Shown: positions 12,460 to 35,712 of the stretch, one piece after another
How the letters are laid out: every line of letters starts with the position of its first letter
Position numbering within the stretch: position 1 is the first letter of the stretch
Virus record (IMG/VR): IMGVR_UViG_3300008255_000246
Coordinates: 1 to 38,318 of that record
Source of the DNA: a virus
Taxonomy: Duplodnaviria; Caudoviricetes
DNA length: 38,318 nucleotides
Direction: 5' to 3' (one strand)
The notes under the pieces: generated by a model
Database searches by the model: none
Told to the model about the DNA's origin: nothing
What the model saw: the letters and a program-made list of their open reading frames with translations, nothing else
Made by a program: the position numbers and the translations under genes

Positions 12460-12473
12460 GTAAGGAGTGATCT

Positions 12474-13997: not shown

Positions 13998-14101
13998 ACA
14001 GCCCCCCACTTAAAATGAGACAATTGGCTCTCTTGGATTAAGCGCGCTCTGCCCACCAATGCCGCTCGATCCTTCAACCCCCATCGACACAGAGGATAGT
14101 C

Positions 14102-15556: not shown

Positions 15557-15566
15557 AGGGGGAGAT

Positions 15567-17481: not shown

Positions 17482-17485
17482 TGTC

Positions 17486-18250
17486 ATGTCAAACGAGTCT
17501 TGCTCCTGCCTCGCGCTGGTGTGTGAAGCGCAGGGTTACTTGCCCGCGCGAGCGCCCAAGAGTGATTGTCCTCAAGCCTGGGCACTTTATAATGACCACC
17601 ATGATCTGCCCGAAGGTAACAGGCTGCCGAAGTCTAAGGTCAAAGGGGCGTGGCTGACGCGCCGCCTCCCGCGCTTTGAGCTGTATGAGCTTCCTGCTGG
17701 TCGTTTCCAAGACACGCTCCCTGGAGCGCTGGAGGGCTTTGAGCCCTCGGTCTTAGGGATAGATGCCAGTCTTCGCAACACGGGCGTCTGCGTGCTCGCC
17801 AGGAGCCTTTCTGGCGACTTTTACCGCGTCGTGCCGCTCCACTATGGGATCAGCCTAAGTCAAGCTGCCTCGCCTGAGCTGACTGTGATCAGGATGACAA
17901 ACATCACGAACACGGTCGCAAATATTTTTAGCGCTTGTCAGCCTTATGGGCTCCCTGACATTGTGATCGAGGACCACGCCTTTGCTCGGAACGACAACAA
18001 GGCGACCGCCCTTCATGAGCTGCATGGAGACATCAAGGGTTTTTTCTGGAGAACTAGAAATAGGCTTGCACTACCTGTTGGAATCGCTAGTGTACGAAGT
18101 GTCATCGCGCATAACGGGTCTTTAAAAAAAGACAAGTTTCATGCGCTCTTAAAAGCGAAGCTGCCTTGGTTGAATAAGCTAACCGAGGACGAAATTGACG
18201 CATGGGCCGTAGCAACGGCTCATCTAATCGAGGTAAATCATGGCGACTAA
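17486..18250 (+). CDS. RuvC-like resolvase (RNase H fold) with N-terminal extension
   Basis: VLGIDASLRNTG, IVIED, DEIDAWA. Start moved to ATG 17486. Confidence 0.8.
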   Translation: MSNESCSCLALVCEAQGYLPARAPKSDCPQAWALYNDHHDLPEGNRLPKSKVKGAWLTRRLPRFELYELPAGRFQDTLPGALEGFEPSVLGIDASLRNTGVCVLARSLSGDFYRVVPLHYGISLSQAASPELTVIRMTNITNTVANIFSACQPYGLPDIVIEDHAFARNDNKATALHELHGDIKGFFWRTRNRLALPVGIASVRSVIAHNGSLKKDKFHALLKAKLPWLNKLTEDEIDAWAVATAHLIEVNHGD

Positions 18251-19085
18251 GAAGAAGGAAGCGTCCACCGACTTGAAAGTGAACGAGGAAGTGATCGACG
18301 GCTTTGTCGTCGACGCCGACTCCAAGCAAGAGGAGGCCGAGAAGCATCTGGCGAACGTCCGCCAGATCAAAGAAAAGGACGCGGAGCTTTTCGTGGAGCT
18401 GGCTCAAGAGCTTTGGGTTATCAGGCAAGAAAACCTGTTCCTGCTCCTCGAAAACCCTCAGACTGGCATGGCCTACGCTTCGATGAAGGAGTTTATCGAG
18501 GTCGAGGTCAGTTACTCCGAGCGCAAGGCGCATTACCTGTTGGACATCCATAGGGTTTATGCTGACCAGCTCAACGTCATGGACAAGGTAAAGCACCTTG
18601 GCTGGACAAAGCTGATGGAGATGATCCCGGTGATCACGGCTGATAACGTGGATCACTGGATCGCCATCGCTGAGGGCGAAAGCGTCAAGAGCCTTAAGAA
18701 GCTGGTCAAGCACGCCTTGGGTGGTCCTGAAGACATGGACACCCCAGACGGCCTGCTCACCGAGCAAACCAAGCGCTTGACCTTCCAGCTCTTAGATGAC
18801 CAGCACACCGATGTCAGCACAGCGCTTGAAGTCGCCCAGAAGATCAGCGGCTCTAACAACAAAAGCGAGCTGCTGGCGCTCATCGCCAGTGACTTCCTGG
18901 CGGGCAACGCCCAGAGCGCTGGAACCGACCTTCCAGTGCGCGACATCCTGGCTCGCATTGAGCGCAACTTTGGCATCAGCCTGATCGCGCTCAACGCTGG
19001 TGGCCTCATCTACGGCGAAGCAGCGCTGGAGCGACTGGCCACTGGAGATGAGGAGGATGAGGATTTAGGGGATGAGGTCTTCTGA
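18240..19085 (+). CDS. putative DNA-binding protein (HTH plus RHH-like C-terminal part)
   Basis: GAGG RBS. YASMKEFIEVEVSYSERKAHYLL..LGWTKL resembles DUF3102/plasmid-partition-type HTH. LTFQL...helix-helix C-terminal region and acidic tail. Confidence 0.55.
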   Translation: MATKKKEASTDLKVNEEVIDGFVVDADSKQEEAEKHLANVRQIKEKDAELFVELAQELWVIRQENLFLLLENPQTGMAYASMKEFIEVEVSYSERKAHYLLDIHRVYADQLNVMDKVKHLGWTKLMEMIPVITADNVDHWIAIAEGESVKSLKKLVKHALGGPEDMDTPDGLLTEQTKRLTFQLLDDQHTDVSTALEVAQKISGSNNKSELLALIASDFLAGNAQSAGTDLPVRDILARIERNFGISLIALNAGGLIYGEAALERLATGDEEDEDLGDEVF

Positions 19086-19103
19086 GGAAGCCTGATCTAA
19101 ACC

Positions 19104-19135
19104 AAAGGCTGCAAGTGATTGCAGCCTTTTCTTTT
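19104..19135 (+). terminator. intrinsic terminator that is also a loop variant of the dispersed palindrome
   Basis: AAAGGCTGCAA-GTGA-TTGCAGCCTTT followed by TCTTTT. Confidence 0.75.
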
Positions 19136-19144
19136 GGTGGTGAC

Positions 19145-19504
19145 ATGAACCGATATGCGACCGATGCCTTCTACCAGAGCTTCTTGGCAGGCAAGCCCCT
19201 ACCTTTCTCTTGGGAGTCCAGGCTCAAGATCATCGTCAACCTCGCAGAATGGCCAGAGCGCGTGATCGTCTTCTTTGAGAGTCGTTATGATGAAGACGAT
19301 CCCAGGCTGCTTGGTTTGGAAGCGCTAGGCTCTTGGGCTTCGACGCGTGAAAGCTGGCAGGTGAAGCCGACTGAGGGCCTGCCGCCAAGGAGCACCATCA
19401 TGCAGTTAGAGGCTTCTGACTTTGATCAGGAGGTCTTAAAGACGCTCAAAATGAATGCAGCATTTTTGCGAAGAACAAGGTTAAAAGACTTGAACCCATT
19501 CTAG
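19145..19504 (+). CDS. hypothetical protein
   Basis: ATG 19145 after GGTGG; about 119 aa. Confidence 0.55.
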   Translation: MNRYATDAFYQSFLAGKPLPFSWESRLKIIVNLAEWPERVIVFFESRYDEDDPRLLGLEALGSWASTRESWQVKPTEGLPPRSTIMQLEASDFDQEVLKTLKMNAAFLRRTRLKDLNPF

Positions 19505-19563
19505 TTTAAGCTAGTTTTTGTGTGCGTTCTTTCCCTTGCCCCAAAACCCGAACGAGACGAAAA

Positions 19564-20715
19564 ATGCAAGACCAAATGTCCTTAATCTGCGACATCCCAG
19601 ATGTCGTGGAGTTCCTGCCTCTCCCGCCGCCGCTCAACCTTGAGCAGCACAACATCGCCCCTTCAACGCCTGAGCAGCAAGCCCAGGCGTTGAAGTTCGT
19701 TCGCGACATGGCCGTCTCAGATGGCAAAAGCTCAGGAGCCTTCTGGGCGACCAAAAGTGCTATGCACAAAGAGATCCGCCGTAACGACTGGACGCGCGCA
19801 CTCTCCTATGGCCGCTGGTTTCATCACATGGCGAACAACTCGTCAGTGAAGAAGTACATTTACAGTTGCGCCACCGAGGAAACGCGCAACCTCGACATGC
19901 TTTTGTGGATGGCCGAGAACCACGCCAGCCGCAAAGGCGCCGCCACATGGGTTGACTTCCTCCACAAGATCACTTCAAGCATCAAGAAGTGGGAGGTGCC
20001 GTGCTTAGCTCACACAGAATCAATACTGTTCGAGGTCAGCGCCCGCGCTCGCTTGGTGCTGACCGAGGACGAGGTGACTGAGCGCACGCTGAGCGTTGAC
20101 TCGCTCACCGAGGCATATCACATCTTCATCAGTATCAGTATGCCCGAGCAGGACGAGCGCAAACAGCAGCTCATGGGCGAAGCGCTGCTAGAGCGTCTGC
20201 CCAAGGATGTCAGCGATCCGCTCAAGCTCTACTTCAAGCATCGACACATCAGCTTTAACCCGCTTCAGACGATGATTGACTACCTGTTCATCCCTGAGTG
20301 CATCGAGGCTGCCAGCACATACCCGCACGCCCAAGAGCCCGCCGATCTGACCTATGACTTCTATCCTTACGAGCCCTATGTCATGGACAATCACGTCCGC
20401 CCAGGGAATCAGGCTCTTAAGCAGGGCCGCGACGCTTGGTTTAGGAATGAGCAGCCCCCCGGCACCGATCTGCGCTGGAGCGGCGCTGAGATCGGCAACC
20501 TGTGGCGCTATCTCGCATTCCATTCTGGCGATCCCGACTGGATGAACCAAAGCTGGATGCAGCCTTTCGAGGCTTGTGACGACGATCTCAGAACTTATCA
20601 CCGCGCCCTCGCTGTCCAGGCTCATGACAGCGCCTTCATGCCCCGCTTTAAGGTCATGGCCGAGCACATTGACTTGGGATCGCTTGTCGGCTTTGACTGG
20701 ACCGTGCTACGTTAA
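19564..20715 (+). CDS. RarA/MgsA C-terminal-like helical domain protein (no ATPase domain)
   Basis: KSAMHKEIRRND...A..Y resembles RarA SA.HKS.RGSD; later YVMDNH..PG motif. Confidence 0.4.
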   Translation: MQDQMSLICDIPDVVEFLPLPPPLNLEQHNIAPSTPEQQAQALKFVRDMAVSDGKSSGAFWATKSAMHKEIRRNDWTRALSYGRWFHHMANNSSVKKYIYSCATEETRNLDMLLWMAENHASRKGAATWVDFLHKITSSIKKWEVPCLAHTESILFEVSARARLVLTEDEVTERTLSVDSLTEAYHIFISISMPEQDERKQQLMGEALLERLPKDVSDPLKLYFKHRHISFNPLQTMIDYLFIPECIEAASTYPHAQEPADLTYDFYPYEPYVMDNHVRPGNQALKQGRDAWFRNEQPPGTDLRWSGAEIGNLWRYLAFHSGDPDWMNQSWMQPFEACDDDLRTYHRALAVQAHDSAFMPRFKVMAEHIDLGSLVGFDWTVLR

Positions 20716-20721
20716 CTTGCG

Positions 20722-20755
20722 AGCGCTCAACTGCAATCGATTGCAGTTGAGCGCT
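20722..20755. repeat. dispersed palindrome copy 5 (34 bp)
   Basis: AGCGCTCAA-core-TTGAGCGCT, upstream of the wlbA-like gene. Confidence 0.95.
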
Positions 20756-20799
20756 GCTCACATCACCATCGTCAACCTTAATGTCAACTGGAGGAGCGC

Positions 20800-21903
20800 A
20801 TGAGCGTTCGCTACCCTAGTCTTGAACCGATCAACGATCGCCCGGTGAGGTTTGCTATCGTTGGCCTTGGTCGTATCTCTCAGCAGCACATCCAAGCGAT
20901 CAGCGCTTGTCCTAAAGCTGAGCTTGTCGGCGCGTGTGACATTGATCACTACGCGCTCATGAGGCTTTCGACGAGCTATCATGGCGACTTGACGGTCAGG
21001 CATGAACTCGACCGACTCTTAGATGACATCGAGGGTCAAGCCGATGTCGTCGTCTTGACGACGCCTAGTGGCCTCCACGCTGCTCAGGCGATCAAGTGTG
21101 CATCGCGCGGCTTCCATGTCATCACCGAGAAGCCTATGGCGACAAGGTGGAGCGATGCAGTCAACATGGTGCGGGCCTTCGATCAAGCCCAGAAGCTCTT
21201 GATGGTGGTGAAGCAGAACAGGCTCAACCCGACGCTTGTGATGGTAAAGCGCCTTCTCGACGAGGGGCGCCTTGGTCGGATCTATGCCGTCCAGTCTAAC
21301 GTCTTCTGGACGCGCCCACAGCTTTACTATGACTTGGCGGACTGGCGAGGGACGTGGGAGTTTGATGGCGGCGCCGTGATGAATCAGGCAAGCCATTACG
21401 TTGATCTCTTGACGTGGCTCTTTGGGCCTGTGGTCAGTGTCAGCGCCTACGCCTCAACGCTTGCTCGCAAGATCGAGGTGGAGGACACGGCCACACTCTC
21501 TCTTGAGTGGCAGTCAGGGGCACTCGGCAGCATGATGATCACCATGCTGACCTACCGTGAGAACCTTGAGGGCTCGCTTACGATCATCGGTGAGCGTGGA
21601 ACGATCCGCCTTGGCGGCAAGGCGTGCAACACGGTTGACTTCCTCGACATCGAGGGGCTTGATGCCGAGGAAGTCGCCCGCCTGAGCGCTACCTCCTATG
21701 ACACCAGTTCGGTCTATGGATATGGTCACAAGGGCTACTACCAGAACGTCGTCAACGCGCTTGAAGCGGGCACTCGCCCTGATGTTGATGGTCGCGATGG
21801 CTTGAAGTCGCTGGAAGTGATCATGGCGGCTTACAGGTCGTCTCGCTTAGGATGCCGCGTCCACCTCCCATTTGACCTTGGTGTTGGCCATGAAGGCTTC
21901 TGA
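20800..21903 (+). CDS. wlbA: Gfo/Idh/MocA UDP-GlcNAc(A) C3-dehydrogenase (WlbA/WbpB-like)
   Basis: GLGRI Rossmann motif, TPSGLH, EKPMA, WTRPQ.YYD..WRGTWEFDGGA.MNQASHYVDL, SVYG.GH; GGAG RBS. Confidence 0.9.
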   Translation: MSVRYPSLEPINDRPVRFAIVGLGRISQQHIQAISACPKAELVGACDIDHYALMRLSTSYHGDLTVRHELDRLLDDIEGQADVVVLTTPSGLHAAQAIKCASRGFHVITEKPMATRWSDAVNMVRAFDQAQKLLMVVKQNRLNPTLVMVKRLLDEGRLGRIYAVQSNVFWTRPQLYYDLADWRGTWEFDGGAVMNQASHYVDLLTWLFGPVVSVSAYASTLARKIEVEDTATLSLEWQSGALGSMMITMLTYRENLEGSLTIIGERGTIRLGGKACNTVDFLDIEGLDAEEVARLSATSYDTSSVYGYGHKGYYQNVVNALEAGTRPDVDGRDGLKSLEVIMAAYRSSRLGCRVHLPFDLGVGHEGF

Positions 21904-22510
21904 GCTGAAGTTCTATCACCATCCCACATCTGACGTGGAAATGCTTACCGCCGCTGAGCCTAAAGGCTCTATTGGCGATGGCACAAAGATATGGCGCTGG
22001 GTCCACGTCATGAACGGGGCCGTCATCGGAGCGCGCTGCATTCTTGGTCAGGGCGTCTTTGTTGCTCCTGGCGTCAAGCTGGGTAACGGCGTCAAGGTGC
22101 AGAACAACGTCTCGCTCTATGATGGCGTAGAGCTTGAAGATGACGTGTTTATAGGGCCGAGTGTCGTCTTCACGAACGTGAAGACGCCAAGGGCTCATGT
22201 GGAGCGCAAGGACGCCTATGAGAAAACGATCGTTCGTCGAGGCGCTTCTATTGGTGCCAACTCGACGGTCCTCGCTGGCGTTGAGCTTGGGATGTACTGC
22301 TTTGTTGGTGCCTCGTCTTTCGTCAACAAGGACGTGCAGCCCTTCGCCCTGGTCTACGGCCAACCTGCCCGTTGGCAAGGCTGGATGTGCGTCTGCGGCG
22401 AGGTGCTAAGCCGTCAACGCGCGCCTGAGCATATCTGCGAGCACTGCCTAGCAGTCTACAAGGAGCACATCAAAGGCGGCAGCGGCCTTTACTGTGCTTT
22501 CACCCCTTAA
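21890..22510 (+). CDS. wlbB: hexapeptide-repeat sugar N-acetyltransferase (WlbB/WbpD-like)
   Basis: LbH repeats, KVQNNVSLYDGV.LEDDVF.GPS.VFTNV..PR, GASIGANST, GWMCVCG plus C-terminal CxxC. Confidence 0.9.
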   Translation: MKASELKFYHHPTSDVEMLTAAEPKGSIGDGTKIWRWVHVMNGAVIGARCILGQGVFVAPGVKLGNGVKVQNNVSLYDGVELEDDVFIGPSVVFTNVKTPRAHVERKDAYEKTIVRRGASIGANSTVLAGVELGMYCFVGASSFVNKDVQPFALVYGQPARWQGWMCVCGEVLSRQRAPEHICEHCLAVYKEHIKGGSGLYCAFTP

Positions 22511-22542
22511 CATAACCATCCCCGTCTGACTGTGAGTGACCT

Positions 22543-23697
22543 ATGACTGTCCCATTCTTCGAGTTCTTTCAAAGTGAGGAGCAAATCACCAAAGCGCTTG
22601 CCCGAGTCGAGTCTGTGGTGAGGTCTGGCTCTTTCATTGGCGGCCACGTCATCACTGAGCTTGAACACAAGCTCGCCAACTACCTTGGGGTCAGCCCCGA
22701 GCAGGTGGTGACGACAAGCAGCGGCACTGACTCGCTGGTGCTCGCGCTACTCTGTTTGGGTGTAGGCCCAGAAGATTATGTGATCGTCCCGCCCTTCACC
22801 TTCTATGCGACGATCGAGGCGATCCTCTTGGTCGGCGCCAAACCTCTCTTTGTGGACATTTGGATCGACTACAATATCAACTCCAACCTTGTCGCCAAGG
22901 CGCTCAGCAGCCCTGAAGGGGCGTCGGTCAAGGCTATCATGCCCGTTCACCTCTTTGGTCAGATGTGCAACATGGGCCATATTCAAAGCCTCGCCGCCAA
23001 TTATAAGGTGCATGTCATCGAGGATGCAGCTCAGTCGATCGGCTCTTATCTGAAGGAGTACAATGGCGACAAGCAGTATGCTGGCACCATTGGCGACGTG
23101 GGTTGCTTCAGCCTTTTCCCCACAAAGAACCTCGGCTGCATGGGTGATGGTGGCTTTGTCGTCGCGCGCAACCCTGCTGTGGCTTATGAGATCCGCCACC
23201 GCCGCGCCCACTGCATGACGCAGAAGTATTGTCATGATGGCGTTGGCGGCAACTATCGCCTTGACGCGCTCCAAGCTGCCTTTCTGATCGACAGGCTTGA
23301 GGAGCTGCCCACGCTGATTGAGCAAAGGCGCGCAAACGCCGCCTACTATAAAGAGGGCTTGGCTGACGTTAAGAGTGTGTCCTGTCCTTTTGACGGTCAC
23401 GACTATTACAGCTATCGCACCTTCAACCAATACTGCATCCAGTTCGGGACAGCTCAGCAGCGCACCAGGGCTGCTCAAGCCTTTAAGCTCGCAGGCATTG
23501 GATTCAACATCTACTACCCTGTGCCCTGTCACCTCCAGCCTGTGATCAATGGTCGGCGCGGGGCCTTTCCTATGGCAGAGGCAGCGAGCGAGAGGATCAT
23601 GGCGTTGCCGATCTACCCCGGCTTGAAGACCAGTCAGCAAGACCAAGTGATCGATCTGCTCAAGCAACTCGACAGCCGCAACGCAGGAGAGCTTTGA
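22543..23697 (+). CDS. wlbC: DegT/DnrJ/EryC1/StrS PLP sugar aminotransferase (WlbC/WbpE-like)
   Basis: SGTDSL, PVHLFGQ, IEDAAQS, FSLFPTKNLG.MGDGG, G.NYRLDALQAA, YYPVP.HLQP. Confidence 0.92.
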   Translation: MTVPFFEFFQSEEQITKALARVESVVRSGSFIGGHVITELEHKLANYLGVSPEQVVTTSSGTDSLVLALLCLGVGPEDYVIVPPFTFYATIEAILLVGAKPLFVDIWIDYNINSNLVAKALSSPEGASVKAIMPVHLFGQMCNMGHIQSLAANYKVHVIEDAAQSIGSYLKEYNGDKQYAGTIGDVGCFSLFPTKNLGCMGDGGFVVARNPAVAYEIRHRRAHCMTQKYCHDGVGGNYRLDALQAAFLIDRLEELPTLIEQRRANAAYYKEGLADVKSVSCPFDGHDYYSYRTFNQYCIQFGTAQQRTRAAQAFKLAGIGFNIYYPVPCHLQPVINGRRGAFPMAEAASERIMALPIYPGLKTSQQDQVIDLLKQLDSRNAGEL

Positions 23698-24347
23698 TGA
23701 TCTCTTTCACCAATTACACTCGCGCGCTGTTCCTGGCCCCCCATACTGATGACGTTGAGCTTGGTTGTGGTGCGACGCTTGCCAGGATGGTTGATGTTGG
23801 TGTTGACGTGACTGTCGCGGCCTTCTCGACGGCCAAAGAGTCGCTGCCCGAGGACCGCCCTGATCAACTCCGCGATGAGTTCTATACCGCGATGGCGCGA
23901 GTAGGCGTGGCCCCTTCCCGCCTTCACGTCTATGACTACCCCGTGCGCAAGCTCAGCTATCACAGGCAAGATGTGCTGGAGCGCCTTGTCGATCTTCAGC
24001 GCTCTGGAGATTTTGACATTGTGTTCTTGCCATCGGGGCACGATCTCCACCAAGATCACCAAGTGCTCTACGCCGAAGGGACGCGCTGCTTTAAGCATGG
24101 CACGATTCTCGGTTATGAGCTGCCCTGGAACCACATCACCTTTGATGCGCAGTTCTTCATTGAAGTGTCAGCAGCTCACCTTGAGCAGAAATGGAACGCG
24201 ATGCAGGCTTATGAGAGCCAGTTCGAGAAGGCGCGCAGCTACTTCAGCCGCGATTTCATGTTCAGCTTGGCGCAAGTCAGGGGCGAGCAGATCCGCAAGC
24301 CCTACGCTGAGGCTTTTGAGCTTGTTCGCATGGTGCTCAAACTTTAG
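23694..24347 (+). CDS. PIG-L/LmbE-family N-deacetylase
   Basis: APHTDDVELGCG, D.HQDH, K..AM..Y.SQ, AEAF. Confidence 0.9.
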   Translation: MMISFTNYTRALFLAPHTDDVELGCGATLARMVDVGVDVTVAAFSTAKESLPEDRPDQLRDEFYTAMARVGVAPSRLHVYDYPVRKLSYHRQDVLERLVDLQRSGDFDIVFLPSGHDLHQDHQVLYAEGTRCFKHGTILGYELPWNHITFDAQFFIEVSAAHLEQKWNAMQAYESQFEKARSYFSRDFMFSLAQVRGEQIRKPYAEAFELVRMVLKL

Positions 24348-24373
24348 GCGCCCTCGCGCGCTTCTACTGAGAG

Positions 24374-24405
24374 GCCTGTGACTGCAATCGATTGCAGTCA
24401 CAGGC
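24374..24405. repeat. dispersed palindrome copy 6 (32 bp)
   Basis: GCCTGTGA-core-TCACAGGC, between PIG-L and the glycosyltransferase. Confidence 0.95.
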
Positions 24406-24420
24406 TTCAGGAGTTTTTTG

Positions 24421-25950
24421 ATGATCTGTCTCTACATCCCGTTCGTCACCAACCCAAACGTGCAGGGCTGCTCTATCCACAACTCCAACAAGGTCATCTT
24501 GCGCCGCTGGGTGGAGAGCAACGAGAACAACTCAGTGATCTTCCCTATCTACTCGAATTTGACTTATGACGACTGGATCGATCACCCGCGCATCCTCAAG
24601 GTGCCGATCTCCCCGGAGCTGATGACTGGACAGTTCAAGACAGGGAGCAGCCTTCAGGATGACATTCTGAGGCTGGTCCTGCCTGATGATCCTGAGAGTC
24701 TTCAATTTGACTTCATCATGACGCCTAAGCCGAGGATCGCGCCGCAGATTCAGGCGTTGCTTGGGCGAGTTACTGCGGGCTCTCCTGCCGTCATCATGAG
24801 CCTGTGCTCATTCATCACGCCCCCAGATCAGCCCTACTACTCAGGTATCAATCATATCTACGACGAGATTTACTTCTACGGCCTGATGCAAAGTTACGCG
24901 GCCTACCAGTCGGAGTTCTCGTTTCAGTACATGGTCGAGCGCGCCCGCAAGGTCTTCAAGCCCGGCAATATCAGGCGCCTCTATGATAACCGCCTGCCGG
25001 ACTATCAGGGTGTTGATGTGAACCGCGTCCTTGGGGTGATCGACGGGATAGAGAAGCCCAAGAATCACCCGCTCAGGATTCAATACGCGGGCCGCCTTAC
25101 TTCCTCTATGCGCGTCGAGGAGTTTAGGGAAACGGTGCAGTCGCTCTTTGAGTTTGGTCGTGACGTTGAGCTTGTGATCTGCTCTCAGGGGATGCCCGGC
25201 CAATATGGCAAGAAGCAGCTCGGCATCCTTGATGATCGTGGCATGGCCTACGAGCTTCATACTCAGTGCCCCCAAGAGGAGTTCTGGAAGATTTCAGCGA
25301 CCTGCCACATCCAGATCTATTCTTCAAAGTATGGCGAGGCATCGATCGCCGCCTCCACCGCTGAGCAGATCATCGCTGGCGTCGTGCCGATCATCTTGGA
25401 GGCTCCATACACGCAGCGTTGGTGGCAGGACTATCCCTTCAGCTTCAAGACCAAGAGCGAGCTTGAGGTGCATCTTAGGTACATTTACGAGCACTACTTC
25501 GAGGACGAGGTGCAGGGGCCGTTCAACGAGCTGCGCGAACGGATGATCAAGGGGTATGACGTTGTGGTCCGGCATCAAATGCTGATGAACAGCATCAAGC
25601 CCCTGGTCGAGAAGAACAGGGAGACAACGATCGCTGCCGCCAGCTACGTTTCAAGCATTGTGGCTGATGCGCTGCTCGCCAGTGGTATGCCTGAGCAGAT
25701 CACCTGGGATGAGCTGGTCGATGTGGCCAAGCGCACGTCAAAGACAGGGGCGGACATTCGCCAAGGGACGCAGCTTTTCATGAAGACCACCAAACTCGAC
25801 TATCACAAAACGATGGGGTTCATGGGCTACGAGGGCACCTACGATGAGAACAGGGTCTTGACGTATCGACGCCTCGACTTTGACTTCCCCATCGCCAAAT
25901 ACATGAGCAAGTCGGAGTCGGTCCCTGCCGTGGAGGATGAAGAAGAATGA
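24421..25950 (+). CDS. GT-B fold glycosyltransferase
   Basis: IQYAGRL plus an E-x7/8-E-like motif (GEASIAASTAEQIIAGVVPI) typical of the GT4/GT-B C-terminal Rossmann domain; AGGAG RBS. Confidence 0.65.
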   Translation: MICLYIPFVTNPNVQGCSIHNSNKVILRRWVESNENNSVIFPIYSNLTYDDWIDHPRILKVPISPELMTGQFKTGSSLQDDILRLVLPDDPESLQFDFIMTPKPRIAPQIQALLGRVTAGSPAVIMSLCSFITPPDQPYYSGINHIYDEIYFYGLMQSYAAYQSEFSFQYMVERARKVFKPGNIRRLYDNRLPDYQGVDVNRVLGVIDGIEKPKNHPLRIQYAGRLTSSMRVEEFRETVQSLFEFGRDVELVICSQGMPGQYGKKQLGILDDRGMAYELHTQCPQEEFWKISATCHIQIYSSKYGEASIAASTAEQIIAGVVPIILEAPYTQRWWQDYPFSFKTKSELEVHLRYIYEHYFEDEVQGPFNELRERMIKGYDVVVRHQMLMNSIKPLVEKNRETTIAAASYVSSIVADALLASGMPEQITWDELVDVAKRTSKTGADIRQGTQLFMKTTKLDYHKTMGFMGYEGTYDENRVLTYRRLDFDFPIAKYMSKSESVPAVEDEEE

Positions 25951-26624
25951 GAGTCTGCATCCACCAACTCAACTTCATGCCTTGGCCCGGATACTTTAAC
26001 AAGATGATCAAGTCAGACGTGTTCATCCTTGATGTAGACTCCAAGGTTGGCGAGTTCACCCGACGCGCTAAGCTCAGCCGTCAGCATCAGGGGTCGAACA
26101 AGGACTACTATCTGACCTTACCCCTCAATGGGCGCATGGTGAGCATCGGCCAGTGCCAATTCACACCTCACGTCACCGACTGGCCAGAGCGAGTGTTTGG
26201 TGACTTGAAGGCCGCCTACGCCAAGGCGCCTTACTGGAAGGTATACGAGCACGAGCTTGCTGAGCTTCTTGGGAGCAAGTCGCTGTTTCTGTGGCAGTAT
26301 AATCTGGCTGCGCTAATATGGTTAAGAGTAAGACTGAAGATCAACACACCACTGGCGCTCTGCGCAGACCATTCAGGCGACTCGACGACTGATCGCCTGA
26401 TCCATGCGTCTAAGTCTGTGGGCGCGTCATCGTGCATCCTTGGTAGCTCATTTAAGGCTTATGGCGACATGGATGCTTGGCGAGCATCTGGCCTGGGCCT
26501 TGTCATTCAAAACCTTGCCAAAGATCCTTCGCCTTACTCGACGCTCCACTGGCTGCTCACCATTGGTCCAGAGCGCACGAGGGAGCTGGTCGTTGGCTTT
26601 GCAACGTTTGAGAGGTTGATGTGA
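25947..26624 (+). CDS. WbqC-like protein (proposed aminoacyl/glycyl transferase)
   Basis: IHQ.NFMPW.GYFNKM..SDVFI.D, LTLP, Y.KAPY, T.RLI, ST(L)HWL..IGP. Confidence 0.85.
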   Translation: MRVCIHQLNFMPWPGYFNKMIKSDVFILDVDSKVGEFTRRAKLSRQHQGSNKDYYLTLPLNGRMVSIGQCQFTPHVTDWPERVFGDLKAAYAKAPYWKVYEHELAELLGSKSLFLWQYNLAALIWLRVRLKINTPLALCADHSGDSTTDRLIHASKSVGASSCILGSSFKAYGDMDAWRASGLGLVIQNLAKDPSPYSTLHWLLTIGPERTRELVVGFATFERLM

Positions 26625-27442
26625 TCGACGAGATGGAGACAGAAGGGGCGCTGGGTGGTGAATATAGGGTGCTGCCCATAGAGAAGTGCGTGCCTAATGA
26701 GTGGAATCCCAACGAGATGGATGAGGAGACGCTGAACAAGCTGTCCGACAACATCGACGAGGTTGGGTTCATCGATCCCATTCAGGTGGTCAGGATCGAT
26801 CGCGGCGACGGCGCCGAGGTCTATCAGATTCTTGGTGGAGAGCACCGCTGGCAAGCCTGCAAGTATAGCGGCAAGACTCACATTCCAGCGATTGTTTTGA
26901 CCAGCGACATCTGGAAGGACGAAGACCTTAAGAAATTCGTCACCGTGCGTCTCAACGCGCTCAGGGGTGAGATCAATACCGAGAAGTTCGTCAAGCTCTG
27001 GACCGACCTTGCGCGCCGCTATGAGGCCAAGGAGATGCAGAACCTCTTGGCGTTCACAGACAACTCTGCTTACAAGTCGCTCACCAAGGGCCTCGTGCAA
27101 GACATCGTGAGCATGGACCTCCCCGCGAGCGTGAAGGACCAGTTCAAGAAGAAGATCAAGGAGGAGAAGCTGACAGTAGGCGGCATCTCCAAACTGCTTA
27201 ACGAGCTGTTCTCCAAGTATGGGAGCACGGTGCCTAATCGCTACCTGTTCTTTGACTACGGCAACAAGGAGCACCTTTGGGTGCCCGTGGACGACAGGCT
27301 TTGGAAGCACCTTACGATGCTGATGAATGCTGTGTCCGAGGAGAATGTATCTGCGACCGAAGTGTTCAAGGATATGTTGAGGCTCTATGACCTGAACCGC
27401 CTCAAGCGTCTCCCCAAAGTCATAAGCACAGACGAGCAGTGA
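26621..27442 (+). CDS. ParB/Srx N-terminal domain protein
   Basis: PNEWNPN.M, L..NI.E.GFIDPI.V, YQILGGEHRW.A. Confidence 0.88.
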   Translation: MIDEMETEGALGGEYRVLPIEKCVPNEWNPNEMDEETLNKLSDNIDEVGFIDPIQVVRIDRGDGAEVYQILGGEHRWQACKYSGKTHIPAIVLTSDIWKDEDLKKFVTVRLNALRGEINTEKFVKLWTDLARRYEAKEMQNLLAFTDNSAYKSLTKGLVQDIVSMDLPASVKDQFKKKIKEEKLTVGGISKLLNELFSKYGSTVPNRYLFFDYGNKEHLWVPVDDRLWKHLTMLMNAVSEENVSATEVFKDMLRLYDLNRLKRLPKVISTDEQ

Positions 27443-27443
27443 T

Positions 27444-28166
27444 ATGTCTGAAGTGCATCGCGCGCCCCGTCGCTATCGCCGGGATGAGAAGAAATATCAG
27501 AAGCTGAGGAACCTGAATTGCTTTAATGACGCCTACGATATGATCTTCAATGGGTTCAAGCTGACTGAGATTGCCTCGTTCATCCAAGAGGACAAGGGAG
27601 AATATCTTGAGGTCCAGCCGACCACGCTAGTCGCTATCTTGAGCGACTTTAAGCGCTCGGTCATGACTGAGGATGAGATCGCCGTGCAGGTCCATCCAGA
27701 GCGCGCTAAGCAGGCATTGGAAAAGCTCAACGATCATGTTGACGTGCTGAACGAGTATCAGCGCCTCTACGACATGCAGATGGCCAGGATTCAGAAGACC
27801 GTGGCGATGGAGGAGCACATGAACGGCATGATGCTCCCGCAGCTTGGAAAAGAGATCAGCCGGGCCGCCGACCTGCTCCGACAGATCAAAGAGACGCAGC
27901 AAGAGTATGGCCTCACCCCGAGAAACATAGGCCAGTTGACGCATCGCGCCGAGATTGGGGTGGTAGCAGGGGACAAGATCCCGCCCCACCTACTCGGATC
28001 TGAGAAGATTCAGCAGACGATTGAGTTTTTTAAACTCTTGGAGAACACCGACTCAGGCGTGTTGGTTGCCGCGCAGCTCTTTCCCGTCTCGGTCGAAAGC
28101 GACATCCCCGAGTATGACGACGCCGTAATCATCGACAACCATGATGCCGGATCTGAAGAAGAATAG
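27444..28166 (+). CDS. putative terminase small subunit
   Basis: N-terminal HTH-like region, central coiled coil and acidic tail; lies immediately upstream of the large terminase. Confidence 0.55.
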   Translation: MSEVHRAPRRYRRDEKKYQKLRNLNCFNDAYDMIFNGFKLTEIASFIQEDKGEYLEVQPTTLVAILSDFKRSVMTEDEIAVQVHPERAKQALEKLNDHVDVLNEYQRLYDMQMARIQKTVAMEEHMNGMMLPQLGKEISRAADLLRQIKETQQEYGLTPRNIGQLTHRAEIGVVAGDKIPPHLLGSEKIQQTIEFFKLLENTDSGVLVAAQLFPVSVESDIPEYDDAVIIDNHDAGSEEE

Positions 28167-28175
28167 GAGGGTCAA

Positions 28176-30188
28176 GTGATTGAAAAAGAGGGTGGCCGAG
28201 CGCGCAGCGTAAGGACTGTTGAGGAGGAATTAGACATCATCCGTAGTGCTTGGCAAAGCCTGAGCTACGAGCAGCAGCGACTCATCAAAGAGGTCATGGC
28301 GGGCAAGCAAGAGTCAGTTGACGTTTACCGGGCGATGGCCTCAGCTCACTACATTAGAGAGCCTGTCGATCTTGATACCTTCCTCGACGATCCCTACTAC
28401 TCCGGCACAGGTGGCCGCAGCGTCTTTCCTGAGATCCGCAAGTGCTTAAAGGAGATCAACGCGGGCCGCTACTCGTCAGTGATCATGGCTGGGTCAATTG
28501 GTTGGGGTAAGAGCTACGCCGCCACCTACGGGCTCATGTACTCGATCTATCGTCTGACCTGCCTGCGCAACCCGCACGAGTCGCTAGGCGTGGCGCCCAA
28601 CTCAATGATCATCTTCGGCCTGCTGTCGATGTCCAGGGAGCACTGCCGAGATACGCTCTATCAGGACTTCAAAGAGAAGCTGGAGGGCAGCGCCTACTTT
28701 CAGGAGCTAGGCTCACAGTGCTTGACCTACTATGCCAAGATCATGCCTGGGGTGAGGGTGGTGACAGACTCGACGGCAGGCAAGAACGTCATCGGCAAGA
28801 ACCTCATCGGTGGCATCATCGATGAGGTCAACTTTGGCGCTTCGATTAAGCTCGTCTCCACCAAAAGGACAGCGACCAGTCAAGGCGCCCCGCTCACGCA
28901 GGTTGAGGTCACTTATGACCAGCTCAACCGCCGCATCAAGTCGCGCTTTATGAGGCGCGGCACAGTGCCTGGGTGCCTATATGTGATCTCGTCCTCAAAC
29001 AACGAGATGGACTTCACAGAGAAGCTGATCAACGCCGCCGCTCATGATCCGCAGGTGTGCGTGCTCAACTATGCTGAGTGGGAGACAAAGCCGCCTGAGC
29101 GTTATAGTGGTGAGAAGTTCCGCGTCTTCTTTGGAGGCCGGGCCTTGGTGTCTCGCATCCTTGAGCCAGATGAGCCCGACCCTGTGACTGATGACGAGTT
29201 CGCCAAGGTCATCGAGGTGCCGATCGAGTTCAGGCAGGACTTCGAGCGCGACATTGAAAACTCGATCAGGGACATCGCTGGGGTGTCTGTTCCGCGCATC
29301 ATGCCGTTTATGTCCCGCTGGGATAAGATCCAGGCGATCTATAAAGAGCGCGAAGATCAGCCCGTGCCGACAAAGGAAGTGATCTGGTACAGCGGCGACC
29401 CCTCACCGTTCAGATGGAACAACCTATCGAAGAAGCGGCAGATCACAGAATATGGCGTCACCAAGGTGAAGTGGTTGCCCTTGGTTAACCCTGATGCGCG
29501 CCGCCACATCCACCTCGACCCGAGCTTGACCAAGGATAAGATGGGCTTTGTCGTGGGCCACATCGATAGGTGGGTTGAGGTGCCGCTCTATGACGCTGAG
29601 AGCAACACCTACTACTCTGAGCTGAAGCCCTTGATCTGGATTGACGTTGCGCTGGCGATCTCAGCGCCGCCCGGTGGAGAGATCACTTACTCGCACGTCA
29701 GGCGCTTGATCTACGAGCTTCAGGAGCACGGCTATAAGTTCAACTTTGTGAGCGCCGACACCTACCAGAGCGCAGATATGCTGCAAGAGCTTAACGCTAA
29801 GGGCATCAGGTCTGAGATCCGCTCACTCGACACAAGGATTACTGGGTATCAATACTGCAAGGACGCGATCTATGATGGTCGCGTCTTGATGTACCCCTGC
29901 GACTATCTGATCGATGAGCTGAAGTATCTCCAGGTGGACAACATCCGAGGCAAGATCGATCACCTACCCGGTCGCACTAAGGATGTTTCCGATGCGCTTG
30001 CGGGTGTAGTATGGTCGCTATCGACTGAGGTTGAGAAACCTATGGATTTGACGCTTGGCTTGAATGCCTTTGAGAAGACGGCCCAGAGCGAAGACGAATA
30101 TTTTGGGCTCACTGGCCCAGACTCTTTGGGGAATGACCCCAACCGTGTCTTCATGCAAGGTCGCGACTTTCCAAGCTGGCTAAAATAA
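28176..30188 (+). CDS. terL: terminase large subunit
   Basis: GGAGG RBS with GTG start. Walker A GSIGWGKS, Walker B IIDEVNF, ISS motif III, and nuclease motifs HLDPS, DTYQS, KIDH...KDVSDA. Confidence 0.9.
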   Translation: MIEKEGGRARSVRTVEEELDIIRSAWQSLSYEQQRLIKEVMAGKQESVDVYRAMASAHYIREPVDLDTFLDDPYYSGTGGRSVFPEIRKCLKEINAGRYSSVIMAGSIGWGKSYAATYGLMYSIYRLTCLRNPHESLGVAPNSMIIFGLLSMSREHCRDTLYQDFKEKLEGSAYFQELGSQCLTYYAKIMPGVRVVTDSTAGKNVIGKNLIGGIIDEVNFGASIKLVSTKRTATSQGAPLTQVEVTYDQLNRRIKSRFMRRGTVPGCLYVISSSNNEMDFTEKLINAAAHDPQVCVLNYAEWETKPPERYSGEKFRVFFGGRALVSRILEPDEPDPVTDDEFAKVIEVPIEFRQDFERDIENSIRDIAGVSVPRIMPFMSRWDKIQAIYKEREDQPVPTKEVIWYSGDPSPFRWNNLSKKRQITEYGVTKVKWLPLVNPDARRHIHLDPSLTKDKMGFVVGHIDRWVEVPLYDAESNTYYSELKPLIWIDVALAISAPPGGEITYSHVRRLIYELQEHGYKFNFVSADTYQSADMLQELNAKGIRSEIRSLDTRITGYQYCKDAIYDGRVLMYPCDYLIDELKYLQVDNIRGKIDHLPGRTKDVSDALAGVVWSLSTEVEKPMDLTLGLNAFEKTAQSEDEYFGLTGPDSLGNDPNRVFMQGRDFPSWLK

Positions 30189-30198
30189 GAGGTGCGCT

Positions 30199-31935
30199 GT
30201 GGGCTTATACGATCTCTGGAACGACTTAAGGGGCTTTTGGTCGATGCAGGCCAATCAGGTTCAGGAGATTGAGCGAGCGCGCCACCCTGAGCGCTATAAG
30301 TCACCAATGAACCTCTGGGGGCTGGGCGGCGCCGAGGGCGGCTTCTTTGACAGCTTCACGCGCAACACGCAGGTTCATGCCGACCTCTACCGTCGTTATG
30401 TGGACTATGAGCAAATGGATGACTACCCCGAGTTGTCATCCGCGCTTGACTCCTATGCCGACGAGGCGACGCAGGCCGACTTCCTGAGAGGCCAGAAGAT
30501 ATGGGTTGAGAGCCCCAACATTCACATCGCCTCGGATCTCAACTTCATGCTTCACAAGACGCTCAAGGTGGACAACGTGATCTGGGAGCAGACGCGTTAT
30601 CTGTGCAAGATGGGCAACGGCTTTGAGCGCATGTTGATCAACGAAAACGGCGTAATCAAGCTGGATCCGTTGCCAGCGACGATGACGCGCGTGGTCAAGG
30701 GTGTTGGCAACATCACCATCGGCTATATCGCCTCGCTCAACCCATCAGTGACCATGAATCCCGATCAGTTCAGGTCGCTTCTCTTGAAGGCGCAAGGCGG
30801 CCAGGGTCCGATCGTCACGTCCGGCAACGCGCAAGACATTCCGTTTGAGGGCTGGGAGGTGTCGCACTTTGCGCTGCGTGGCAAGGAGCGCATGACCGAC
30901 TATGGGTACTCCATCATGGAGCCCGCGCGCTGGGTCTACCGTCGCTTGGTCATGATGGAGGATGCTGTGCTTGTCCATAAGTTGACGAGGGCATCGAGCC
31001 GCAACGTCTTCTACGTCAACACAGGCGACCTCCAGCCTGATCAGGCGATGAGCTACGCGCTTCAGGTTAGAAATTTCTTCAAGCGCCAGAAGCTCGTGCG
31101 CACAAGCAACGGTACGCTTGACAGCGCCTATAACCCCTTGGCGATCGATGAGGACTTCTTTATCCCCGTTCACCGAGAGCGCGGCGAAGCTGTGCGCGTG
31201 GACAGCATCAGCGGGTCTGACTATCAGGGGATGGAGGACACTGACTACTTCAGGAAGAAGCTGGGCCGCGCGATCAAGATCCCCAACTTTGGGCGAGATG
31301 ACGACGCTCAAAACCGCCCGCTCTCCCAAGAGGACTTCAGGTTTGCTGCCGCAGTGATGCGTGTGCAGCGCGCAATTATCGAGGGCTATTACAAGGTGTG
31401 TGATGTTCACCTTATCGCGACAGGTCGCGACCCGAGGGACTTTGACTACAAGATCATGATGACGGTGCCGTCCGCGATCATTGAGCTTGCCAGGGTTGAG
31501 GTGATGTCGGCCAAGGCGGACATTCTGGGCTCTCTCCGAGAAGACGTGTCGATCCGTTGGCTGCTGGTCAACCTCTATGGCTTCTCAGAAGACGAAGCGG
31601 TTACGCTCATGGTCCAAAGGCAAGAGGAGCTGGATTACTTCGCGGCAACGGACTTGGAGCGCCAGCTTGAGAGGGAGAAGATCGAGCGTGAAGTTGGCGG
31701 CCTCAGCGAGAGCAATCTTGGTCACTCAAGCGAGTTTGAGAGGAAGCTCAAAAAGGGAGCCCTTGGGGTCACTCGTGACAAGTTCATGGAGGGCAGTGAG
31801 CCTGACCGCGCGCACCTACGCCGCATCGCCAAGCGAGAGCCTAGACTGGCAAAGCGGCTGGATCGTCTTGAGGCGCTGCTGAATGAGATCAAGCGCACGA
31901 CCCGAATGAACAGCCAAAACCGAGAAGCAAAGTAA
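30199..31935 (+). CDS. portal protein (T4 gp20-like)
   Basis: Y..MD.YPE.SSALD.YADEAT, L.MMEDA.LV.KL.RA..R.VFYV..G.L, EDFFIP, D.DYF.KKL..A.KIP. Confidence 0.9.
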   Translation: MGLYDLWNDLRGFWSMQANQVQEIERARHPERYKSPMNLWGLGGAEGGFFDSFTRNTQVHADLYRRYVDYEQMDDYPELSSALDSYADEATQADFLRGQKIWVESPNIHIASDLNFMLHKTLKVDNVIWEQTRYLCKMGNGFERMLINENGVIKLDPLPATMTRVVKGVGNITIGYIASLNPSVTMNPDQFRSLLLKAQGGQGPIVTSGNAQDIPFEGWEVSHFALRGKERMTDYGYSIMEPARWVYRRLVMMEDAVLVHKLTRASSRNVFYVNTGDLQPDQAMSYALQVRNFFKRQKLVRTSNGTLDSAYNPLAIDEDFFIPVHRERGEAVRVDSISGSDYQGMEDTDYFRKKLGRAIKIPNFGRDDDAQNRPLSQEDFRFAAAVMRVQRAIIEGYYKVCDVHLIATGRDPRDFDYKIMMTVPSAIIELARVEVMSAKADILGSLREDVSIRWLLVNLYGFSEDEAVTLMVQRQEELDYFAATDLERQLEREKIEREVGGLSESNLGHSSEFERKLKKGALGVTRDKFMEGSEPDRAHLRRIAKREPRLAKRLDRLEALLNEIKRTTRMNSQNREAK

Positions 31936-31952
31936 CTGCAATCGATTGCAGT
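31935..31952. repeat. dispersed palindrome copy 7 (18 bp)
   Basis: A-core-T, between the portal TAA and the next AGGAG RBS. Confidence 0.95.
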
Positions 31953-31965
31953 AGGAGAATGAAGC

Positions 31966-32715
31966 ATGGCATTGAACGCGCAGCGCATCGTGGAACTCAC
32001 CACAGGCCGCATGGAAGACAAGCTCAACACCATTCACGCCTGGGTGACTGAGCGCGACGAGGTGCTTATCGGCACTTATGAGGACCGCTTTGTGACGATC
32101 AAGGGCACGAGCGCGTTCACCTACGGATACAGCTTTGGGGCGGATGGGCTATCGGTCAACCTGCCGGGCTCAAGTGAGGATCTTCACATCGACGATGAGG
32201 AGTATGGCAGGCAAGTCGTCACCAAGACTAAGGAGGCCATGTCGCTGCTCTCCGAGGGCCGCGTGTCGGAATCTGTCGAGATGTTGACAGCGCTCATGCC
32301 TCATGCACACGCACCAGACTTTATTGCAGAAGCGTGGTTGAGTAGATTAAGGCCACTGACTGAGCAACGTCTCTTGTTTGTAGAGCAGGACGTGGGCTTA
32401 ATTACAGAAGGGCTATCGACTCGACAGTTGACGTTGCTCGAAGAAAGCATCGACGAGGGCTCGTATCTGAGTAGGTGCAACGTGGTTCGTCTTCAAGCAG
32501 CTCGCTTCACTGAGATGATCCCCGTGCTCGCTGAATCGGCCCCGGTGCTTGAAGGAGCTTTTCTACTTGAGAGCTTGGACCTATGGAATCAGATCGACCT
32601 CTTGCACGAGAGCTTGAACTTTATCAGCGAGAGTTATCACAGGCTCTTGTCGGAGCAGTTGACGACCCTTAGTAACCTAACAGCGCGAGCCTTAAGCCTC
32701 GCAGGTGGAGAGTAA
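31966..32715 (+). CDS. head-module protein, likely prohead core/internal protein
   Basis: AGGAG RBS; between portal and protease; many hydrophobic-x-E-S/A motifs. Confidence 0.55.
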   Translation: MALNAQRIVELTTGRMEDKLNTIHAWVTERDEVLIGTYEDRFVTIKGTSAFTYGYSFGADGLSVNLPGSSEDLHIDDEEYGRQVVTKTKEAMSLLSEGRVSESVEMLTALMPHAHAPDFIAEAWLSRLRPLTEQRLLFVEQDVGLITEGLSTRQLTLLEESIDEGSYLSRCNVVRLQAARFTEMIPVLAESAPVLEGAFLLESLDLWNQIDLLHESLNFISESYHRLLSEQLTTLSNLTARALSLAGGE

Positions 32716-32718
32716 CGA

Positions 32719-33420
32719 ATGAGCGAATATAACGTCTTGCTAGAGAGGAAAAGCGGCCTTTTGAGCTATCTGCGAGCTGGCCGAACCGAGCTTTCTGAGT
32801 CCAAAGAGCCCAAGCGCTACACGGTGGCTCAGTCTTCTGGAGAGGAGCCGCCCGACCCCGAGCCTGTGCTTGAGGCGCTGCTTTCTGAGGCTGGCTATCG
32901 CAAGGTGCGCAGCTTCGCCAAGCCGGGCGCTCCAAAGAAGAAGAAGATCAAGAAGGGCACGTCAGGGCAGCGAGCAGCGTGGCGCCGCAACTATCGCAAG
33001 AAGCGCGCAAAGCTGAAGGTCCAGCGCAAGCGCCGTCAGCGCAAGCCAGAGTTCCGTCGTCGCGAGCAGCGCAAGAAGTCTTACCTTAAGCGCATGGGCG
33101 AGTCGGCTGAGCGCAGCGTTGATGGCGTGCGCTACTTGTTCGTGACCGATCTCATGGAGGCAGCCGACCTCGCGAGCATCACGCTTGAGCAGATGATCGC
33201 CTTGGCGGAGGACGCTGACTTTGCTGACGAGCTGGCCGAGTGCTCCTGCCAGTTCCAAGAGATCGCCGCCGATCTGGAGCGCGGCCAAATCACAGCCGAG
33301 GAGGCGACAGCTCGCATGGTCAAGGGCATGAACCTTCTCGACTCCTACCTTGAGATTTACGAGGGGAAGGAGTCTGATGATGACGGCGATGATGACAATG
33401 ACGATGACGAAGAAGAATGA
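32719..33420 (+). CDS. putative prohead core protein with an Arg/Lys-rich block and acidic tail
   Basis: RRNYRKKRAKLKVQRKRRQRK block and DDDGDDDNDDDEEE end; position matches T4 gp67/gp68. Confidence 0.55.
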   Translation: MSEYNVLLERKSGLLSYLRAGRTELSESKEPKRYTVAQSSGEEPPDPEPVLEALLSEAGYRKVRSFAKPGAPKKKKIKKGTSGQRAAWRRNYRKKRAKLKVQRKRRQRKPEFRRREQRKKSYLKRMGESAERSVDGVRYLFVTDLMEAADLASITLEQMIALAEDADFADELAECSCQFQEIAADLERGQITAEEATARMVKGMNLLDSYLEIYEGKESDDDGDDDNDDDEEE

Positions 33421-33655
33421 CCTTGAGGAGCGTCTGTCGGCGTTCCTCAACGAAGAATTTGAGAGGAGCGATGGCGGCCTGAAGAAGCGGCGAACGGCCT
33501 ATTCTTCAGGTCGCCGTGAGCAGATGGGCATGAGGCGTAAGCGTCCATCCTTGCGCGCTGAGCTTAAATCAGCGCTCGGGACAAGCAAGCGCCGAAAGAA
33601 GTCGGTCAACACACAGACGCCCGCTCGCTCAAAACAACGTTGGCGAAAACGATGA
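33404..33655 (+). CDS. small, very basic protein
   Basis: MTKKNDLEERLSAFLNEE... with an R/K-rich C-terminus; overlaps the previous stop. Confidence 0.45.
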   Translation: MTKKNDLEERLSAFLNEEFERSDGGLKKRRTAYSSGRREQMGMRRKRPSLRAELKSALGTSKRRKKSVNTQTPARSKQRWRKR

Positions 33656-33659
33656 TAGA

Positions 33660-33689
33660 GTGTGTACTGCAATCGATTGCAGTACACAC
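33660..33689. repeat. dispersed palindrome copy 8 (30 bp)
   Basis: GTGTGTA-core-TACACAC, upstream of the protease. Confidence 0.95.
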
Positions 33690-33749
33690 CATTGATTCAG
33701 GCTTGCTGATGGCTTCAAGATAGGTGCAGCACAGCCACAGGAGGACAGG

Positions 33750-35636: not shown

Positions 35637-35660
35637 TTCGTTTGCAGTGTAGAGAAACGA

Positions 35661-35676
35661 GGAGGCGTAAGCCTCC
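35661..35676 (+). promoter_or_regulatory. GNRA-tetraloop hairpin in the capsid gene leader
   Basis: GGAGGC-GTAA-GCCTCC with no U-tract. Confidence 0.4.
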
Positions 35677-35712
35677 CACCCTGAATCAACAGCTTTAAAA
35701 GAGAGATAAATC

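Follow-up and report, generated by a model that had tools for sequence, protein, structure and literature searches.

The stretch analyzed, hereafter the window, comprises 38,318 bases from a tailed phage (IMG/VR record IMGVR_UViG_3300008255_000246) and is a fragment, the genomes of relatives measuring 80 to 130 kb. Coding in the window runs on the plus strand through a replication module, a sugar cassette that leads into the terminase genes, and a T4-like head module. The cassette under study comprises nine open reading frames (ORFs) at positions 20800 to 30188, all on the plus strand, intact and free of internal stops, which encode, in order, WlbA, WlbB, WlbC, PIG-L, a glycosyltransferase (GT), WbqC, ParB, and the small (TerS) and large (TerL) terminase. 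Spacing, with overlaps negative, is -14 nucleotides (nt) for WlbA/WlbB, 32 for WlbB/WlbC, -1 for WlbC/PIG-L, and 73 for PIG-L/GT, followed by -4 for GT/WbqC, -4 for WbqC/ParB, 1 for ParB/TerS, and 9 for TerS/TerL. These coordinates confirm an earlier note on this DNA, which described sugar genes running into ParB-N and the terminases with 4-nt GT/WbqC/ParB overlaps and gaps of 1 to 9 nt. The Pfam families found above cut-off among the cassette proteins were GFO_IDH_MocA, Hexapep, DegT, PIG-L, WbqC, and ParB_N.

Sugar-making and tailoring genes

The first gene (20800..21903) encodes a WlbA/WbpB-type 3-dehydrogenase of UDP-N-acetylglucosaminuronic acid (UDP-GlcNAcA). Its PDB matches 3q2i (E 2e-125) and 3q2k (E 4e-117), which we take to be WlbA structures, were far ahead of the next (E 2e-24), and the protein is 55 to 59% identical to database proteins named UDP-N-acetyl-2-amino-2-deoxyglucuronate dehydrogenase. 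The second gene (21890..22510) encodes a WlbB/WbpD-type hexapeptide N-acetyltransferase (Hexapep) with 3mqg, presumably the WlbB structure, as its top match (E 1e-54). The third (22543..23697) encodes a WlbC/WbpE-type pyridoxal phosphate aminotransferase with the motif SLFPTKNLG, matched best by WbpE (3nyu, E 3e-62), a small margin over other sugar aminotransferases at E 1e-59. By sequence comparison all three enzymes match characterized WlbA, WlbB, and WlbC (WbpB, WbpD, and WbpE) members closely, and the assignments of the earlier note hold. The known product of the WlbABC pathway is UDP-2,3-diacetamido-2,3-dideoxyglucuronate, and the same product would be expected from the window cassette.

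The best PDB matches and the wlbA-wlbB-wlbC order are shared with Bordetella WlbABC and Pseudomonas WbpBDE. The window differs from these pathways in lacking WbpA, in the absence of a WlbD/WbpI 2-epimerase, flippase, or polymerase from its 38 kb, and in the joining of the three genes to PIG-L, WbqC, and a phage GT. The PIG-L family N-deacetylase (23697..24347; PF02585, E 2e-15) retains the metal-binding motifs APHTDD and HQDH intact and has a weak NCBIfam match to BshB1, under the cut-off. The WbqC-like protein (25947..26624; PF08889, E 5e-24) is a putative aminoacyl (glycyl) transferase.

Across 80 overlapping loci and genomes, WlbA and WlbB had no match outside the window, and WlbA-like matches in GenBank phages reached at most 31% identity. 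Because WlbA and WlbB matched nothing else while the genes around the GT vary from locus to locus, the diamino-sugar pathway is a local addition to an older core and not the heart of the system. The diamino-sugar hypermodification put forward earlier thus stands in part: the enzymes are present, and the diamino sugar itself is only a local plug-in, with WlbAB in the window alone among the 80 sources.

The glycosyltransferase and its conserved neighbors

The GT (24421..25950) had no Pfam match and matched phrog_30253; its family counts 168 relatives among cluster representatives, mostly of 450 to 540 amino acids. A single-sequence fold reached a predicted local distance difference test (pLDDT) value of only 35 and was discarded, and the AlphaFold2 model built with 128 aligned relatives reached pLDDT 92.4 and a predicted template modeling score of 0.91. 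In this model, residues 1 to 400 form two Rossmann domains with a GT-B (GT4-like) fold, as proposed earlier. Residues 398 to 490 form an additional C-terminal domain, kept throughout the family, whose nearest models were winged helices of the MarR, IclR, and FUR types. The predicted GT-ParB complex scored 0.12, the mark being 0.32, and weighs neither for nor against.

The best structural match of the GT was BshA (Z 26.6, root mean square deviation 3.0, 351 aligned residues), followed by enzymes of lipopolysaccharide (LPS) and undecaprenyl diphosphate (Und-PP) pathways (PglA, Z 23.6; WaaG, Z 22.7), and the protein-modifying GT-B enzymes SdgB and GtfA were also among the matches. In the comparison of T4 enzymes with GT4s that the earlier note had put forward, BshA at Z 26.6 stood against T4 alpha-GT at Z 19.5; T4 beta-GT was not among the 50 structural matches listed. 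The DNA arabinosyltransferases of another phage likewise have BshA or 6kih as their best structural matches (PMC13326640, partial text), so the BshA-first ranking does not decide the target of the GT. With BshA as best fold match and the weak sub-cut-off BshB1 match of PIG-L, the GT, deacetylase, and WbqC could make a small molecule by a logic like that of BshA/BshB/BshC, or modify a host defense protein or RNA. We consider this improbable, since known DNA GTs also rank BshA first, a metabolite pathway would not need linkage to ParB or terminase, and a 13-member GT clade occurs mostly without tailoring genes.

ParB (26621..27442) carries a ParB-N domain (PF02195; phrog_26387, E 3.5e-49) with the motif GEHRWQA and a family-specific C-terminal region. 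It is followed by a putative small terminase (27444..28166), named from its position and with no family match above cut-off, and by the large terminase (28176..30188), recognized by a weak PHROG match (E 2e-4), Walker motifs, and 30 to 33% identity to annotated terminases. The ParB query retrieved six GenBank and 49 IMG/VR loci, and 52 were counted after exclusion of the window, L001 (the same phage), L025 (DLP5 again), and L030 (a near-copy from the KellEzio group). Searches for loci with the GT, WbqC, and WlbA as queries returned the window's own DNA or nothing. The GT family was present in 41 of the 52 loci, and 9 of the 11 loci without it have less than 3 kb upstream. A TerL homolog lies within 2.5 kb downstream in 47 of 52 loci, and the gene after ParB, in the TerS slot, falls in a common cluster in 48 of 52. 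The GT-ParB-terminase neighborhood was therefore conserved, as anticipated, and gene order alone would suggest coupling to packaging.

The third proposed core gene, overlooked in the earlier note and outside its coordinates, is the plus-strand ORF 19522..20715. Its profile (A7) matches residues 251 to 349 of RarA (3pvs) with E 1.6e-8; only the C-terminal region of RarA/MgsA is matched, and there is no AAA Pfam match, so that the N-terminal AAA+ ATPase domain is absent. MgsA_C occurs in 11% of the members of its atlas cluster, and the ORF forms one family with two unannotated neighbor clusters (hhalign probability 96.7), with invariant residues S79, K83, E119, D289, H291, and G295. Of 27 records with the ParB family, 22 carry this gene, compared with none of 11 records that lack the family; four of the ParB-bearing records that miss the gene are at most 58% complete. 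It was also found in unrelated Arthrobacter phages and was absent from the complete kin G017 and G037, which have the replication and terminase genes in common. From this co-occurrence we propose the RarA-C-like protein as a core member of the module.

The module spans unrelated phage lineages, Arthrobacter phages included, and is absent from G017 and G037. Stenotrophomonas DLP3 and DLP5, RHph_TM16, JP1, RcTiptonus, and the Arthrobacter phages KellEzio and DanielleIgnace carry the same GT, ParB, and RarA-C-like families, linked to terminase except in the Arthrobacter loci as retrieved, and differ from the window in having other sugar cassettes or none. Around the GT, varying loci carry epimerase/dehydratase, DegT, PIG-L, WbqC, UDP-GlcNAc 2-epimerase, and UDP-sugar dehydrogenase genes, and further methyltransferase, GDSL, and RmlC/RmlD genes; some have none. 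Judged from these gene contents, sugar genes around the conserved GT swap freely. In a 37-row GT tree, with cassette labels assigned by hand, the window lies on a long branch and groups (98/95) with L235 and L236, whose cassettes are RmlC/RmlD and WbqC/methyltransferase/PIG-L. The closest synteny to the window, without WlbABC, was seen in L236:1726-13638, with RarA-C-like, WbqC, methyltransferase, GT, PIG-L, ParB, TerS, TerL, and T4-like portal genes.

Several loci show other arrangements. In two of the loci whose ParB is most closely related (38%), L055:7321-10002 and L008, the GT slot is occupied by an 893-amino-acid methyltransferase-GT2-TPR-GT9 fusion, and L013 has a Dam-type methylase upstream. 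Gene L062:17295-17975 (DLP3 gp99) is annotated as Erm; its place within the sugar cassette is taken in relatives by S-adenosylmethionine-dependent methyltransferases, and a role in sugar methylation seems as likely. KellEzio has a separate GT4 amid its tail genes, outside this GT family. Of the 52 loci, 11 have a dCTP deaminase or dUTPase gene close to the GT or ParB; the window's dCTP deaminase (6866-7483) is 13 kb from the cassette.

The same WlbABC enzymes, as members of an LPS pathway 55 to 59% identical to bacterial proteins, bring in the host surface as a target: the cassette could alter host LPS or capsule, for superinfection exclusion or conversion, through the flippase and polymerase of the host. 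The high fold scores of PglA and WaaG, the incomplete contig, the proposal of this role by the DLP3 authors (PMC7326821, partial text), and the temperate lifestyle of DLP3 (same source) and DLP5 (PMC5834331) are in line with it. In the 38-kb fragment, clear membrane segments are lacking from all proteins (19-residue hydropathy peaks at 1.74), the membrane flippase and membrane transferase of GtrABC-type serotype conversion are absent from it, the GT family is also conserved among phages infecting Arthrobacter, a Gram-positive host, and the cassette sits in a late packaging operon, overlapping ParB. The earlier view that serotype conversion fits poorly, for want of a flippase, polymerase, or GtrA/GtrB-type membrane gene, is borne out for the window; host-surface conversion fits least, and we regard it as quite unlikely.

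In the open literature searched, no characterization of this GT family or of WbqC in phage DNA modification was found. Part of the module may already have been described by Iyer et al. 2013, cited here through PMC8256090 and PMC13229309. The available parts of PMC8601537 and PMC7824862 hold nothing on the module.

The window DNA was found in aquifer metagenomes and one hot-spring sample. All four sequencing runs compared with the window, one of them possibly the source, cover all 30 bins of positions 18000 to 32000, with five single-letter differences in total. Contigs of those runs end at the hairpin between PIG-L and GT, and the PIG-L/GT join is supported by the window assembly and the IMG/VR contig L001 from the same phage. 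The window joins a DLP5/RcTiptonus-like replication module (4343-19085) to a T4-like head module (30199-37218; portal, protease, and gp23), and G017 has both modules without the sugar module.

Acceptor, restriction sites, and a repeated palindrome

ParB activates phage DNA-modifying (thymine) dioxygenases, with GTs and terminases as common neighbors (PMC13229309 and PMC8256090, partial texts), and has been proposed to direct modification during packaging (PMC8256090, partial text). Clustering of ParB, GT, and terminase is already known for TET-type systems (both sources). The 5mYOX (TET/JBP)-ParB-GT clusters share with the present module a ParB-N protein without a clear DNA-binding domain, a GT, sugar-tailoring genes, and terminase in one neighborhood, and a postreplicative logic (PMC8256090, PMC13229309, and bioRxiv 2023.12.21.572611, partial texts). 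They differ from it in the Tet_JBP domain, which no protein of the 22 relatives here matches, in the GT family, which here has a winged-helix-like domain, and in the RarA-C-like partner.

T4 alpha-GT and the arabinosylation systems of HY126, RB69, and Acinetobacter DLP3, a phage other than Stenotrophomonas DLP3, resemble the GT in the GT-B fold (Z 19.5 to 20) and in a phage-supplied nucleotide sugar; they need a thymidylate synthase homolog for hydroxymethylcytosine or hydroxycytosine, found in 2 of 22 relatives here, are not linked to terminase by this module, and are 10 to 14% identical (PMC13326640, partial text). RP13, described as a heavily modified phage, and the other glycosylated-thymidine phages YerA41, Carin-5, and SP-15 likewise have sugar, deacetylase, and GT genes, and RP13 has PIG-L and WbqC; these phages depend on thymidylate synthase (PMC12686479, partial text). 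RP13 lacks the RarA-C-like gene, and its retrieved locus lacks this GT and ParB. Its PIG-L, WbqC, and GT4-like genes lie close together, and no link to the RP13 modification was seen. In DLP5, a divergent ThyX-like gene (gp110, L004:15366-16259, E 9e-7) directly behind the terminase is, by its sequence, a candidate priming enzyme for that subgroup.

DLP3 DNA was reported to resist 15 restriction enzymes (PMC7326821, partial text), and 4 of 36 enzymes cut DLP5 DNA (PMC5834331). The DLP3 genome has sites for five of the 15 enzymes, namely, EcoRI (7), XbaI (1), SmaI (68), ClaI (18), and NdeI (4). If those digests can be trusted, the SmaI sequence CCCGGG among the sites reported uncut would point to an acceptor most likely on C or G, or else on the backbone. 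The window has 0.56 of the expected number of six-base palindromes, and 19 restriction palindromes are nearly absent, for example, HindIII with 0 sites where 27 were expected. Site avoidance is no weaker with the module than without it, so the module does not act as a general shield against type II enzymes, and modification is probably partial. Such strong avoidance, seen in the window and also in relatives that carry the module, weakens the anti-restriction purpose suggested earlier.

Continued site avoidance would also fit a GT that acts on capsid, portal, or tail proteins while virions are assembled; the cassette would then adjoin the head genes so as to be expressed late. Mycobacteriophages are known to have glycosylated virions. 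The position in a late operon, the protein-acting SdgB and GtfA among the fold matches, and the scarcity of TET and ThyA enzymes in the relatives, as no primed base would be needed, speak for this target. It leaves unexplained why ParB is so tightly linked and why the RarA-C-like gene and the winged-helix-like tail are present, the same GT family occurs in phages with unrelated capsids, and KellEzio keeps its tail-gene GT4 apart from the family. Virion glycosylation is a real rival, which we nevertheless judge unlikely.

The palindrome CTGCAATCGATTGCAG, present in nine exact copies where 0.02 were expected, starts at window positions 1557, 5022, 10941, 15999, 20731, 24382, 31936, 33667, and 37228, with a variant at 19109; eight of the nine copies lie outside ORFs, several of them in longer hairpins. 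Two copies, at hairpins overlooked in the earlier note, bracket the WlbA-to-PIG-L segment: one in a longer hairpin before WlbA (20731..20746) and one between PIG-L and GT (24382..24397), as part of a longer perfect inverted repeat. The pattern TGCA-N6-TGCA was enriched in 17 of 21 genomes, with 11 to 67 copies compared to 0 to 7 for spacers 4, 5, 7, and 8. Its core is genome specific, asymmetric variants occur in both orientations, and copies are often intragenic (18 of 25 in DLP3 and 35 of 47 in RcTiptonus). A role as parS for this ParB was rejected, as the motif occurs in G017, G019, and G037, which lack the ParB, and is absent from two ParB-bearing Arthrobacter phages; an RNA or promoter role fits poorly with asymmetric variants in both orientations. 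TGCA-N6-TGCA, dispersed through the genomes of the lineage, is thus a feature of that lineage in its own right and does not track with the module; its use as a loading site is possible and unsupported. No shared protein that could bind it was found among the genomes compared, and a literature string search found no phage paper on the motif. DanielleIgnace (W01) has about four copies of a sequence similar to the bacterial parS consensus among its most repeated 12-mers.

Proposed glycosylation of phage DNA

As the best explanation, which we hold with modest confidence, a conserved three-gene core beside the terminase (RarA-C-like protein, GT-B enzyme with winged-helix-like tail, and ParB-N) together with a swappable cassette would act late in infection to glycosylate the DNA of the phage itself, assisted by ParB. 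Both non-sugar partners, ParB and the RarA-C-like protein, belong to DNA-associated families. UDP-GlcNAcA would be supplied by the host or by the missing part of the genome; WlbA would oxidize, WlbC aminate, and WlbB N-acetylate C3 to give UDP-2,3-diacetamido-2,3-dideoxyglucuronate. The GT, with the winged helix holding it on DNA and ParB activating or loading it, would then move the sugar onto DNA, most likely on C or G. Before or after transfer, PIG-L may strip one acetyl group and WbqC acylate the amine so exposed, probably by adding an amino acid, and the RarA-C-like protein may serve as a DNA-engaging scaffold or prepare the acceptor. Exchange of the sugar would probably let the mark outpace host defenses that read modifications. 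A more specific version is tentative and rather doubtful: the core would glycosylate canonical DNA directly (C, G, or backbone), without TET or thymidylate synthase priming, during packaging, with the sugar exchanged via imported bacterial O-antigen pathways. In this phage the sugar would be an aminoacylated 2,3-diamino-glucuronate, and TGCA-N6-TGCA sites, spaced every 2 to 5 kb, might serve for loading.

A number of observations weigh against DNA as the target. No UDP-GlcNAc 6-dehydrogenase (WbpA), which would supply UDP-GlcNAcA, was found by Pfam in the 38-kb window. DNA GTs rank below cellular GT4s among the structural matches (HY126, Z 20.0; T4 alpha-GT, Z 19.5). The winged-helix match of the GT tail (TM 0.51 to 0.55) is under the bar for naming, a profile of the tail found no winged helix among PDB sequences, and the tail, at a net charge of -2 (-5 to +5 across the family), is not basic. 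Several of the 52 loci are near-duplicates, and L012 and L055 have ParB without this GT despite 10 kb upstream. The complete record G029 (99%) has the ParB family without the RarA-C-like gene, and 12 of the 22 RarA-C-like positives supplied rows to the profile, ten not.

The acceptor evidence adds to these points. Tet_JBP (PF12851) was found in 0 of 22 relatives, an annotation that many phage enzymes escape (PMC13229309, partial text). ThyA-type enzymes were found in 2 of 22 relatives, as partial matches, and in 0 of 9 near-complete viral records, the window itself being incomplete, and Thy1 was found in 4 of 22, as divergent ThyX-like genes. Ten of the 15 enzymes used on DLP3 have no site in its genome, so most of the resistance is site avoidance, and the remainder could be due to impure DNA or methylation. 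Palindromes are as depleted in 80- to 100-kb phages with the module (0.43 to 0.80) as in three phages without it (0.45 to 0.58).

The DNA glycosylation routes in the cited papers start from a hydroxylated pyrimidine made by a TET or thymidylate synthase homolog (PMC8256090, PMC13229309, and PMC13326640, partial texts). If glycosylation of DNA by this core is true, at least 168 GT representatives seemingly without both priming routes would point to a new acceptor chemistry, the modification behind the reported DLP3 and DLP5 resistance would be explained, and ParB-assisted modification would extend to a second class of enzymes. Cultured relatives, for example, RcTiptonus and KellEzio, make the DNA glycosylation reading directly testable. 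Phages would then borrow LPS sugar pathways to vary the mark on their DNA.

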